Positions 10,434 through 12,640 of a stretch of DNA of 64,000 nt are shown in pieces. The translations under genes were made by a program, and so were the position numbers. Where the stretch lies: the NCBI GenBank assembly GCA_050249535.1, contig JBFWQI010000001.1, positions 149,541 through 213,540 of the forward strand. The letters run 5' to 3'. The first letter of the stretch is position 1. Each line of letters begins with the position of its first letter. Below the pieces are notes generated by a model, which saw only the letters and a list, made by a program, of their open reading frames with translations, was not told the origin of the DNA and searched no databases. The DNA is from Blastocatellales bacterium. Lineage in GTDB: Bacteria > Acidobacteriota > Blastocatellia > RBC074.

Positions 10434-12545
10434 ATGTCCATGAAAACATACACGACACAGGAGATCAGAAACCTGGGCATTGTAGGTCACGGCGACGCTG
10501 GGAAGACATCCCTCGTCGCCGCGATGCTATACGCGACCGGAGCCACGAACCGTCTCGGCAGAGTGGATGAAGGGACAGCGCCCACCGATTTTGACGAAGA
10601 AGAGATCGCACGCAAGATCAGCCTCAATATCACGCCGGCCTACGTCGAATACAAAGGAACCAAGATCAATCTGATCGATACACCGGGATACGCCGCATTC
10701 ATAGCCAATGCCAAGCCGGCCCTGCGAGTCTGCGAGACCGCTCTCTTCGTGGTCGATGCCGTGAGCGGCATCGGAGTCCAGACCGAGAAGGCCTGGGAGC
10801 TGGCGGACGAACTGCATCGTCCTCGTCCGCGCTACATCGTCGTCAATAAACTGGACAAGGAGCGGGCCGATTTCGGCGCGACGTACAACGCGCTGCGCGA
10901 GACCTTCGGCCGGAGCTGCGTGCCGATCACATTGCCGATCGGGTCGGAGAAGGATTTTCGCGGAGTCGTCGATGTCATTCACATGAAGGCGTTCGAATTC
11001 GACGCCAACGGCAAGCCGACCGAGGTGCCCATACCCGAATCGGGTCGCGGATACATCGACGAGACCCATGAGCGTCTGATCGAGATGGTGGCCGAGGCGG
11101 ACGACACTCTGATGGAGCATTTCTTCGACGCCGGCACGCTCAATGACGAGGAGTTTATCGGAGGGCTTAAGAAGGCCATCGCCAACCGGGTTCTGACGCC
11201 GGTCTTCGCCGTCTCGTCGACGAACATGACTGGAATCGTTCCGCTGCTCGACGCGATTGTCGACTATGCGCCCAATCCCGGCGATCTGGGAGCGGTCAAG
11301 GGGACGGTCAGCGCCGATCCGGGTGCGGAGGAGGTCGAGCGCGCGGTCGACGATGCCGAGTCGCCGGCTGCTCAGGTCTTCAGAACGATCGTCGAGAATT
11401 TCGGCAAGATCACGGTCATGAAGGTCTTCTCCGGCGTCATCAAGTCGGATGCCACGCTCTTCAATGTGAGCAAGGGCGTCGCCGAACGACTCGGCCCTGT
11501 CCACGTCATCCAGGGCAAAAACCTCGAGAAGGTGGCCGAAGCGCATGCCGGAGACATCATCGCCGTCAGCAAGCTCAAGGATACTTCGACCGGCGACACG
11601 CTCTGCGACAAGGCGGCGCCGATCTTCCACGAACCGGTCAGGTTCCCCGAACCGGCGATCCACTTCGCGATCGTGCCCAAATCGCGGGCCGATGAGGACA
11701 AGCTCTCAGGCGCGATCCACAAGATCGAGGACGAGGACCCGCAGCTTCATTATTCCCGAAACGACGAAACCAAGGAGTTCGAGCTTGGCGGATCCAGCCA
11801 GCAGCATATCGAAACGGTCGTCGCCAAGCTCAAGAACAGGTACCACGTCGAGGTCGAGCTTCATCAGCCGAAGGTCCCGTATCGCGAAACGATCAAGGCC
11901 CGGGTCGAGGTCCAGGGGCGCCACAAGAAGCAGACCGGAGGCCGCGGCCAGTTCGGCGATTGCAAGTGCATCTTCGAGCCGCTTCCCCGTGGCGGCGGAT
12001 TCGAGTTCGCCGACAAGATCTTCGGAGGCGCGATTCCTCAGCAGTGGCGCCCGGCGGTCGAGAAGGGAATCAGGGACGCAGCGGCGCGCGGAGCGATCGC
12101 GGGTTATCCGCTGGTCGATTTCAAGGTCGAGCTGATCGACGGCTCATATCACACCGTCGATTCCGACGACCTCTCGTTCCAGCTCGCCGGCCGCAAGGCT
12201 TTCAAGGCCGCGATCGAAAAGGCCAATCCCGTCCTGCTCGAACCCGTCATGAACGTCGAGGTCGTGGCCCCGCAGGAATGCGCCGGCGACATCATGGGCG
12301 ATCTCAATTCCCGTCGCGGTCGGATTCAGGGCATGGACTCGAAAGGAACCTCGCAGATCGTCAAGGCCCAGGTGCCGATGGCCGAGATGCTGACCTATCC
12401 TCAGACCCTCAACTCCATCACCAGCGCGCGCGGCTCTTATCACATGGAATTCTCCCATTACGATGAGATACCCGCCCATATGGCTCAGAAGATCGTCCAG
12501 CAGGCTCAGGCCGAAGGGCGCATTCGTAAGGATGAGGAAGAGTAG
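10434..12545 (+). CDS. Elongation factor G-family translational GTPase paralog (703 aa).
   Basis: An AAGGAG ribosome-binding site is present. The G1 motif is GHGDAGKT, which is atypical against the canonical AHIDAGKT. The G3 motif is DTPGY and the G4 motif is NKLD. Domains II to V are EF-G-like (the product ends ...YHMEFSHYDEIPAHMAQK). Confidence 0.8.
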   Translation: MSMKTYTTQEIRNLGIVGHGDAGKTSLVAAMLYATGATNRLGRVDEGTAPTDFDEEEIARKISLNITPAYVEYKGTKINLIDTPGYAAFIANAKPALRVCETALFVVDAVSGIGVQTEKAWELADELHRPRPRYIVVNKLDKERADFGATYNALRETFGRSCVPITLPIGSEKDFRGVVDVIHMKAFEFDANGKPTEVPIPESGRGYIDETHERLIEMVAEADDTLMEHFFDAGTLNDEEFIGGLKKAIANRVLTPVFAVSSTNMTGIVPLLDAIVDYAPNPGDLGAVKGTVSADPGAEEVERAVDDAESPAAQVFRTIVENFGKITVMKVFSGVIKSDATLFNVSKGVAERLGPVHVIQGKNLEKVAEAHAGDIIAVSKLKDTSTGDTLCDKAAPIFHEPVRFPEPAIHFAIVPKSRADEDKLSGAIHKIEDEDPQLHYSRNDETKEFELGGSSQQHIETVVAKLKNRYHVEVELHQPKVPYRETIKARVEVQGRHKKQTGGRGQFGDCKCIFEPLPRGGGFEFADKIFGGAIPQQWRPAVEKGIRDAAARGAIAGYPLVDFKVELIDGSYHTVDSDDLSFQLAGRKAFKAAIEKANPVLLEPVMNVEVVAPQECAGDIMGDLNSRRGRIQGMDSKGTSQIVKAQVPMAEMLTYPQTLNSITSARGSYHMEFSHYDEIPAHMAQKIVQQAQAEGRIRKDEEE

Positions 12546-12640
12546 AAAGTAGAAAGTAAAAAGTAAAAAGTAGAAAGATTAGAGAAGTTTTTCCGGCTAA
12601 TCTTTCTACTTTTTACTTTCTACTTTCTACTTTCTACTTT
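12541..12640. repeat. (AGTAGAAAGT)n long perfect hairpin with a stem of about 40 bp, beginning at the EF-G stop codon. It is a likely terminator or mRNA-stability element and a member of a dispersed repeat family.
   Basis: The sequence is agtagaaagtagaaagtaaaaagtaaaaagtagaaagatta-gagaagtttttccggc-taatctttctactttttactttctactttctactttctactttt. The TAG stop codon of the upstream gene is part of the first repeat unit. Confidence 0.6.

Follow-up and report, generated by a model that had tools for sequence, protein, structure and literature searches.

Inverted arrays of a seven-nucleotide repeat form long hairpins beside stop codons in a Blastocatellales bacterium and its relatives

We analysed a stretch of 64,000 nucleotides from a Blastocatellales bacterium (contig JBFWQI010000001.1, positions 149,541 to 213,540; hereafter the window, 64 kb with about 58% GC) and found at the ends of its genes three long hairpins whose arms are true arrays of a 7-nt simple sequence repeat (SSR), AGTAGAA, set as inverted pairs around a centre. 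Between related genomes the number of units, the unit variants and the centres turn over fast, and the position after the stop codon is kept. In our best reading these elements are SSR arrays of the short tandemly repeated repetitive (STRR) type, arranged as inverted pairs and specific to a lineage of Blastocatellia-like Acidobacteriota. That the elements are palindromes made of SSRs, and that they evolve by slippage, is far more certain than the role we propose for them, that of bidirectional gene-end hairpins, for which, judging from position and shape, we find the case evenly balanced.

Results

Structure of the three hairpins

Pfam matches identify the neighbours of the three sites as genes for an elongation factor G (EF-G)-like protein, RelA/SpoT, a lactate permease, a short-form gnd, zwf and rpiB. 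A 17-mer of the repeat matched 20 times in the window with at most two mismatches, every time inside the three sites, against 0.00 matches in 100 dinucleotide-preserving shuffles, so the original prediction that they share one inverted repeat array is confirmed. Its repeat unit, the decamer AGTAGAAAGT, is refuted: both the period found by Tandem Repeats Finder and the register of the matches give 7 nt in all arms (3.6–5.6 copies per arm, 91–100% matches), the unit being AGTAGAA with a G/A variant, AGTAAAA. That program placed the arms at 12541–12577 and 12602–12640 (site 1), 32184–32220 and 32496–32527 (site 2), and 38402–38426 and 38434–38464 (site 3). The parts of each site are as follows.

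12541–12577, plus strand: site 1, 5′ arm, (AGTAGAA)2(AGTAAAA)2(AGTAGAA)AG
12543–12545: first TAG of this array, which is the stop codon of the EF-G-like open reading frame (ORF) 10434–12545
12578–12601, plus strand: site 1, centre of 24 nt, in which ATTAG...CTAAT adds 5 bp to the stem; 14-nt loop
12602–12640, plus strand: site 1, 3′ arm, (CTTTCTA/CTTTTTA)5.6, followed by TTTTAAAT
12657–12674: 3′ of site 1, extended −10 element TGCTATAAT (TG at 12657–12658, TATAAT at 12660–12665), then the relA ATG at 12674
32184–32220, plus strand: site 2, 5′ arm, 5.3 units, beginning 2 nt past the TGA of ORF 31057–32181
32221–32258, plus strand: site 2, centre of 38 nt, extended by a 9-bp palindrome of its own, GATGATCGA...TCGATCATT
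32259–32275, plus strand: site 2, inner part of the 3′ arm, terminating in the left copy (32268–32275) of an 8-bp target duplication, TTTTACTT
32276–32498, no strand assigned: insert of 223 bp resembling a miniature inverted-repeat transposable element (MITE), splitting the site 2 3′ arm
32499–32527, plus strand: site 2, outer part of the 3′ arm, holding the right copy of the target duplication (32499–32506)
32522–32524, minus strand: TAG stop codon of the lactate permease gene, within the outermost unit of the site 2 3′ arm
38385–38387, minus strand: zwf ATG, preceded 3′ of site 3 on that strand by U6 and then GAGG
38402–38426, plus strand: site 3, arm adjoining zwf, the 3′ arm in the gnd>zwf mRNA (minus strand)
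38427–38433, plus strand: site 3, 7-nt loop, ATGACAC
38434–38464, plus strand: site 3, arm adjoining gnd, the 5′ purine arm in the mRNA, starting 3–4 nt past the gnd TAA (38468–38470, minus strand)

An inverted-repeat search returned arms of 45 nt at site 1 (96% complementary) and of 28 nt at site 3 (93%). By count of pairs, the site 1 stem has 43 Watson-Crick pairs, one G-U pair and one mismatch (45 in all), the site 3 stem 26, one and one (28), and the site 2 stem, reconstructed without its insert, 43, two and one (46). The hairpins had been called perfect, with stems of 25–40 bp; they are near-perfect, each stem having one mismatch and one or two G-U pairs, and they are indeed long, the measured range being 28–46 bp at about −33 to −77 kcal/mol. 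Predicted RNA folds reach −59.6 kcal/mol on the plus strand (z −9.5) and −61.3 on the minus strand (z −14.1) at site 1, and −32.7 and −34.8 kcal/mol, respectively, at site 3 (z about −7). The arms are, as claimed, AT-rich in GC-rich DNA (29% GC), the 3′ arm is 57% U, and U4 follows the site 1 hairpin. A single (AGTAGAA)n arm has no self-complementarity, and pairing requires the opposite arm. At gathering thresholds, the window contains no match to an Rfam family. The placing beside stop codons of unrelated genes also stands: the first unit of site 1 supplies the TAG of the EF-G-like gene, ORF 31057–32181 ends 2 nt before its array, the outermost unit on the far side of site 2 contains the lactate permease TAG, and the gnd TAA is 3–4 nt from its array.

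The insert in site 2, correctly recognised before as a MITE, has a 14-bp terminal inverted repeat, GTAACTGCTCAGCC...GGCTGAGTAGTTAC, with one mismatch between the ends, and is flanked by the 8-bp target duplication; its arms contain ACAGGATTT-type repeats (9/10 nt). Excising the insert together with one copy of the duplication restores the 46-bp stem of site 2 (−76.6 kcal/mol). The insert is a separate, true MITE family and not part of the heptamer element. A second copy lies at 2377–2657 and carries a nested insert of about 66 bp (2505–2570) with similar ends; the orthologous spacer of a related locus, L115, is an empty site for this copy. In its terminal repeats, target duplication and empty orthologous site the MITE contrasts with the heptamer hairpins.

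Position relative to genes

We collected 37 non-redundant hairpins from the window, its relatives and metagenomes, calling genes as greedy longest ORFs. The median distance from a stop codon to the adjoining arm was 1 nt, with 29 of 39 distances at 5 nt or less, and many of these distances were −5, −12 or −19, that is, the array's own TAG closes the ORF. From a start codon to the adjoining arm the median was 54 nt, with 2 of 27 at 5 nt or less (Mann-Whitney p = 6e-8 for the stop side versus the start side). The suggestion that a dispersed family is linked to gene 3′ ends is thus borne out in the larger sample. Among 29 hairpins with classed spacers, 15 were in tandem, 10 in convergent and 4 in divergent spacers, where the background was 64/18/18% by number of spacers and 51/17/32% by spacer bases; convergent spacers were enriched (10/29 versus 17–18%, p about 0.02) and divergent spacers depleted by bases (4/29 versus 32%, p = 0.02). 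In several operonic cases the 3′ arm ends 7–35 nt ahead of the next start codon.

In every inverted pair listed for the window and the genome-scan loci, the arms run from purine to pyrimidine, never the reverse, and in many copies the outer and inner phase is constant (AGTAG...GAAAG, centre, CTTTC...CTACT). Stops fall in every one of the three frames of the 5′ arm: since the unit length, 7, is not divisible by 3, TAG reaches each frame within 21 nt, and with the purine arm lying 5′ on both strands the same is true for genes arriving from either side. The property is kept by the derived units AGTAAAA (TAA), AGTTGAA (TGA) and GGCAGTA (TAG).

Orthologous sites in related genomes

Syntenic loci were compared in CP065005.1 (L105, a complete 6.33-Mb metagenome-assembled genome, MAG), JADJXM010000011 (L106), CAYZAA01 (L113) and WBZO/WBZR (L107/L108), the first three of which are only about 70–83% identical in nucleotide sequence to the window. 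Between gnd and zwf, a heptamer hairpin lies 3–5 nt past the conserved stop codon in all four genomes in which we found it (the window, CP065005, CAYZAA and JADJXM), and it is built differently in each.

gnd>zwf, window: 5′ arm of 4 units, 3′ arm of about 4, centre of 7 nt
gnd>zwf, CP065005: 5′ arm of 11 units, 3′ arm of 2, centre of 60 nt
gnd>zwf, CAYZAA: 5′ arm of 8 units, 3′ arm of 5, left half of the centre in common with CP065005
gnd>zwf, JADJXM: AGTTGAA/AGTTAAA on both arms, centre of 170 nt bearing 18-bp inverted ends of its own
zwf>GDE, window: 36730–36840 (spacer 36713–36866), arms of GGCAGNA-type heptamers, about 27 nt past the zwf stop
zwf>GDE, CP065005: (AGTAGAA)8
zwf>GDE, JADJXM: (AGTTGAA)3 paired with a mixed TTCAACT/TTCTACT arm

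In the zwf>GDE spacer the element begins about 25 nt after the TAA in 3/3 genomes (window, CP065005 and JADJXM); the site is conserved and the repeat family is swapped. Between the convergent lctP and hypothetical genes, AGTAGAA hairpins with 4–5 units per arm are likewise present in 3/3 genomes, with centres of 38, 24 and 52 nt that cannot be aligned. Across these three spacers in the window, CP065005, JADJXM and CAYZAA the arms have from 2 to 11 units, and copy number changes in steps of one 7-nt unit (4, 8 and 11 in the 5′ arm at gnd>zwf). Another pair of orthologous loci (L021 and L076) has 5/7 versus 3/6 units around an identical loop. At the EF-G-like>relA site of L115, a contig with 90% nucleotide identity, the same TAG is the first unit, both arms are (AGTAYAA)n, and the 60-nt centre is unrelated. 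Derived units (AGTTGAA, AGTAYAA, GGCAGNA) thus occur on both arms. The sole arm pair of the window and CP065005 that BLAST aligned is about 97% identical, versus 70–80% for the flanking genes, but it joins the 5′ arm of window site 2 to a different, non-orthologous CP065005 hairpin.

A contig that carries gnd and is 98.5% identical to the window, L109, differs in its first unit, AGTTGAA, and in its whole loop, which is ATAATCCA rather than GTGTCAT. This suggests that loops are mutational hot spots; the loop difference may also be a chimeric join, because L109 was assembled from short reads and breaks off inside the array. Short-read contigs with gnd (L109–L112 and L114, from Logan and JGI) end in or at the heptamer array. 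For these bacteria, which are abundant in soil and wastewater, arrays of this kind interrupt assembly from short reads and can create chimeric joins at gene ends.

Distribution of the repeat

The closest named relatives of Gnd and of the EF-G-like protein belong to MAGs of Blastocatellia and other Acidobacteriota. In GTDB species genomes an exact array 23-mer was matched in at least 104 stretches, spread over many phyla, and most of the listed matches outside Acidobacteriota are one-sided arrays. Full hairpins, with a centre and an inverted array after the first one, cluster in few genomes: JADJXM01, CAZBPH01, other Acidobacteriota (Pyrinomonadaceae, CP065005) and a Waterburya cyanobacterium. 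CAZBPH01 is labelled Heliobacteriaceae, yet one of its loci is orthologous to a JADJXM01 locus and 89.6% identical to it in nucleotides. Three sites in the 64-kb window compare with three repeat loci in 21 kb of CP065005, at least 9 in JADJXM01 and at least 13 in CAZBPH01, and a hairpin-specific pattern retrieved 14 further metagenome contigs with a GC content of 0.46–0.66.

In viral contigs, AGTAGAA arrays numbered 12, as against 11, 9, 2 and 14 for control heptamers of the same composition. Since such controls are equally common, the one-sided arrays in other phyla are generic SSRs, and we rejected the idea that AGTAGAA is a special, horizontally shared heptamer, the controls being as frequent and also tending to sit at stop codons. 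One-sided (AGTAGAA)n arrays in Bacteroidota, Cyanobacteria, Patescibacteria and others usually start between −19 and +33 nt from the stop of a gene on the same strand. About 15 one-sided arrays fall within ORFs and are read in the stop-free orientation, which would give the peptide (FYFLLST)n. In the Waterburya MAG (JBOFLX010000123, L052), AGTAGAA arrays surround a conserved core (about 90 nt) that occurs three times within 8 kb (703–807, 2223–2375 and 5788–5912); this element is MITE-like or structured-RNA-like, unlike the acidobacterial copies with their unique centres.

Assignment to a class of repeat

We compared 39 centres with all loci by BLAST, and the only matches were to orthologous loci, to a nested (GTTTCCA)n element and to the Waterburya copies. 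Exchange of centres as cassettes, or a conserved core like that of a REPIN, is accordingly rejected in this sample. The flanks of more than 35 heptamer hairpin copies showed no target-site duplication, and the window ORFs scanned with Pfam included no transposase, RAYT/Y1 or reverse transcriptase. No filled/empty pair was seen for AGTAGAA-type hairpins, all orthologous sites examined being occupied, with the limit that these are four sites only. Because the centres are locus-unique, target-site duplications are absent and no transposase was found among the window ORFs scanned, the elements are neither repetitive extragenic palindromes (REPs) or REPINs nor classical MITEs. The first class was rejected since the arm is not a 20–40-bp imperfect palindrome and there is no family-wide core or spacer, the second for want of a target duplication and a conserved core and because orthologous AGTAGAA sites are all filled. 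A GTAG tag is present in all copies (outermost unit A-GTAG, element end CTAC-T), which is weak evidence because every unit contains GTAG. The (GTTTCCA)n-armed hairpins, a second family, are nested in AGTAGAA centres of two MAGs, at L009 6566–6908 and L060 1571–1778, 82% identical over 100 nt.

To our knowledge, dispersed bacterial heptanucleotide repeats, known for decades, have neither an accepted function nor an accepted means of spread. The cyanobacterial STRR1–3 sequences, reportedly described by Mazel et al. in 1990, and other long heptanucleotide SSRs (Mrazek et al. 2007, as cited in PMC4679880) share with the present elements tandem 7-nt units, one unit at many intergenic loci and changes in 7-nt steps between strains; the present elements differ from STRR in being inverted pairs that form 28–46-bp hairpins, with a unique centre, a fixed arm order and arms abutting stop codons, in an acidobacterium of 58% GC. 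MITEs (Correia, ERIC, Nezha and similar) are small intergenic elements with terminal inverted repeats, hairpin-forming transcripts and a tendency to nest, all of which the present elements share; unlike MITEs, they lack a conserved internal sequence and a target-site duplication, and we could identify no cognate insertion sequence.

TAACTGA heptamers, which form direct repeats in Beggiatoaceae, Cyanobacteria and Bacteroidetes (MacGregor 2015, PMC4679880), also provide stops in all frames in one orientation, overlap upstream stop codons shortly before the next start and are patchy in phylogeny. They are direct repeats, however (one inverted set out of 170 in BOGUAY), placed mainly by start codons, whereas the present elements are inverted and placed by stops. 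A TAACTGA-type placement, with direct repeats just upstream of starts, was thus not found; instead there are inverted pairs with a start-side median of 54 nt. With REPs, bacterial interspersed mosaic elements (BIMEs) and REPINs (PMC3733652, PMC3116915) they have in common that they are high-copy extragenic palindromes found mostly downstream of genes, with GTAG outer ends like those of head-to-head dimers, with proposed roles in termination and mRNA stabilisation, and targeted by other insertion sequences. The REP unit, however, is a 20–40-bp imperfect palindrome with family-wide sequence and spacer, mobilised by a RAYT, whereas the present arms are non-palindromic SSRs. The likeness to REP/BIME elements that the original prediction saw is therefore one of location and hairpin form, and does not extend to self-palindromic arms, shared centres or a RAYT among the window ORFs.

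Bidirectional intrinsic terminators (Ju et al. 2019, as referenced in PMC13613805) and the intra-operon 3′ stem-loops that set operon stoichiometry through selective RNA processing and stabilisation (PMC4423207) offer a further comparison: the A-rich 5′ flank and U-rich 3′ flank between convergent genes, and the placing of stem-loops after selected cistrons, are alike. The present stems are far longer than those of bidirectional terminators, AU-rich and repeat-built. We found no description of inverted heptamer arrays as gene-end hairpins in Acidobacteriota, most subscription journals being outside the search, and the exact array sequences were not found in the literature searched. Inverted heptamer arrays are unusual but related to known bacterial repeats.

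We rejected the arrays as sigma-70 promoters: a promoter scan of 1–20000 has no entry within the site 1 arrays, and on visual inspection the heptamers are not spaced so as to set −35-like and −10-like hexamers 16–18 nt apart. As a gauge of whether hairpins are general at gene ends, the whole-segment folding energy of all gene 3′ ends does not discriminate, since GC-rich coding controls fold as strongly.

Discussion

Transcribed from either side, an element of this kind would fold into a highly stable hairpin rich in A and U, its 5′ arm A-rich and its 3′ arm U-rich, the purine-first order placing the U-rich arm 3′ on both transcripts. This would be the layout of a bidirectional terminator whose stem is exceptionally long, AU-rich and tolerant of register. 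Between the convergent lctP and hypothetical genes, termination or a block to 3′ exonucleases would be most plausible. Between the EF-G-like gene and the relA promoter, the hairpin could act as a terminator or barrier separating independently promoted genes. A conserved extended −10 element, TGnTATAAT, lies 8–9 nt before the relA/spoT ATG in both the window (12657–12676) and L115 (about 12250–12272), and there is no Shine-Dalgarno sequence at that start; this arrangement suggests that relA may have its own promoter and a leaderless mRNA starting just past the hairpin, and the conserved −10 would make relA a separate transcription unit in need of insulation. Inside the gnd-zwf operon, one could envision an attenuator, or a processing site combined with a barrier to 3′ exonucleases, leading to differential expression of the two genes.

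RNase III is specific for duplexes such that one of 28 bp or more is a likely substrate, and the 28–46-bp duplexes formed here would probably be cleaved by it. The all-frame stops would make ribosomes terminate at the foot of the stem. Liang, Rudd and Deutscher reportedly found in 2015 that REPs within about 15 nt of stop codons cause ribosome stalling and lower upstream expression, and a hairpin so near the stop might have the same effect here. The arrays themselves would grow and shrink by replication slippage, derived units spreading to both arms by concerted evolution. The logic of these elements is readable (inverted pairs, arm order, stop contact, frame stops, kept position), which makes specific hypotheses testable. 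In favour of a gene-end role, terminator-like motifs in 1–20000 are not enriched (14 versus 16.7 in shuffles), and the elements may reveal how gene ends are marked in a poorly studied, GC-rich phylum that has no surplus of canonical terminators.

Several observations weigh against a gene-end role. The zwf ATG lies 16 nt past the gnd>zwf hairpin; full termination there would silence zwf because the ATG is so close to the stem, and since U6, GAGG and the ATG all follow within those 16 nt, this hairpin could only attenuate or be processed. Four of 29 hairpins are in divergent spacers. As canonical intrinsic terminators by motif the elements were rejected, for the site 1 hairpin is not listed in a terminator scan of 1–20000, the part that covers this site alone of the three, and the arms are low in GC, with two G-C pairs per 7 and a true U-tract after some copies only. 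The G/A variants are not mirrored between arms (5 observed versus 4.05 expected, P = 0.38), so pairing is not maintained unit by unit; by the same test, template switching that keeps the arms exact mirrors is not supported, although derived units as a whole are found on both arms. Arrays of purine-rich control heptamers in unrelated viral contigs likewise often start at stop codons, and part of the stop-codon contact is thus a generic property of such SSRs.

More distant relatives also count against it. L116 and L117, at 76% nucleotide identity, have no heptamers at the EF-G-like stop, and L107 and L108 have no heptamer element at the gnd stop, where a different hairpin lies; because they are lacking at orthologous sites of the more distant relatives sampled, the heptamer elements are dispensable as such. 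What L116 and L117 have directly past the same EF-G stop codon is a long GC-rich hairpin, or a hairpin with a T-run. The presence and absence of the elements in relatives, which the original prediction had raised, therefore has two sides, the same sites being occupied at about 70–90% nucleotide identity and ordinary GC-rich hairpins standing there in more distant genomes. The persistence of heptamer hairpins at their sites, and their replacement by GC-rich hairpins further out, fits a role as terminator or stabiliser. In L107 and L108, where Gnd is 86% identical in amino acids, the gnd end including the TAA and a GC-rich hairpin is tandemly duplicated at 10975–11100 with a unit of about 44 nt, which amounts to another way to construct a repeat at this gene end.

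Alternatively, the elements could be a non-adaptive by-product, in which slippage expands SSRs, fold-back or template switching makes inverted pairs of them, and the result is tolerated in short 3′ spacers without function. We consider this unlikely, though it deserves serious attention: long heptanucleotide SSRs are the commonest SSR class in many bacteria, which has been attributed to slippage (Mrazek 2007, as cited in PMC4679880), control heptamers are as frequent in viral contigs and also start at stops, unit number and centres are very unstable, the elements are missing in relatives at 76% nucleotide identity, and the G/A variants are not mirrored. However, independent slippage would not give the same unit at so many loci, and here one heptamer occupies many loci per genome and the same site is filled across genomes 70–80% identical. 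Nor does a by-product account well for aligned arms of the window and CP065005 that are more alike than their flanking genes, for the occurrence of just one of two possible arm orders, or for the convergent enrichment and divergent depletion.

One could also suppose that the elements are non-autonomous and mobile, of a MITE- or REPIN-like kind, with AGTAG...CTACT ends recognised by a transposase in trans (e.g., a Y1/HUH enzyme of RAYT or TIRYT type) and inserting beside stops or into existing gene-end hairpins. The constant outer and inner phase of many copies would agree with this, as would the GTAG of GTAG-type REPs in every unit and the report of Acidobacteria with TIR-associated Y1 transposases (PMC3733652), the breaking of short-read assemblies at the arrays as at repeats, the three Waterburya copies with their conserved core, the other small elements nested inside these hairpins, and a different heptamer hairpin that shows presence and absence at rpiB>gnd. 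We nevertheless judge it improbable, given that the acidobacterial centres are locus-unique without a common core, that no target-site duplication is visible at the ends, that the four orthologous AGTAGAA sites gave no filled/empty pair, that the arms are not self-palindromic REP units and that the window ORFs scanned include no transposase or reverse transcriptase.

The hairpins might also be a self-renewing kind of gene-end element, distinct from transposase-type MITEs and passive SSRs alike, in which a sequence-specific process (a dedicated enzyme, or ectopic conversion between the hundreds of copies) keeps writing the stop-bearing heptamer on both sides of 3′ spacers. This would explain arms about 97% identical where genes are 70–80% identical, together with scrambled centres, but we give it only a small chance. 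If true, it would provide a tractable model for the spread and function of STRR-like heptamers and show one way for bidirectional terminators to arise de novo.

Finally, we find it very unlikely that the arrays are iterated sites for a heptamer-reading single-strand-binding protein (cold-shock, S1-type or other) that tunes translation termination or re-initiation or mRNA decay, a role put forward for the TAACTGA repeats of Beggiatoaceae and for heptamer repeats of Nostoc, the hairpin being secondary: the heptamer sequence, and not just its pairing, is kept at genus-level divergence, sense-orientation one-sided arrays lie at stop codons in many phyla, the 3′ arm is 7–35 nt before the next start in several operonic cases, TAACTGA repeats overlap upstream stops and precede starts while CspB binds one heptamer per protein (PMC4679880), and heptamer repeats affect recF/recO expression in Nostoc (bioRxiv 10.1101/2022.06.06.494920), but in this lineage the arrays are almost always complementary pairs, whose single strands would be sequestered from such a reader, the replacement of AGTAGAA by AGTTGAA, AGTAYAA or GGCAGNA at the same sites argues against a strict sequence-specific one, and no candidate protein was identified.

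Other hairpins and genes nearby

A further hairpin with repeat-built arms in the window, at 9950–10073 (−71.5 kcal/mol), has arms of a tandem 12-mer, GCATGGAGTCCC, and starts 0 nt past the TGA of an OmpR-type response regulator ORF (9266–9949); it is conserved in L115 with a recognisable centre, and there its stem also pairs with the stop-codon region. Another, at 63089–63209 (−44 kcal/mol), has heptamer arms of ATTTSCC/GGAAAAT-type units and lies about 80 nt downstream of a DsbD_2-family gene; its stop-containing (TGA) arm is the 3′ arm, opposite to the AGTAGAA family. In JADJXM alone, the rpiB>gnd spacer has a (GTTTCCA)n hairpin behind a (GGCAGTA)n array (L106 9840–10000); the spacer is empty in the window, CP065005 and CAYZAA.

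Positions 48647–59014 hold a run of defence-like genes, including an nSTAND1/WD40-type ORF recognised by synteny with L105. They comprise a TIR_2 protein (52174–54843) with a weak, below-cutoff match to Peptidase_C25, a CHAT and SIR2_2 protein (54874–56979) and an nSTAND1 NTPase (56936–59014).

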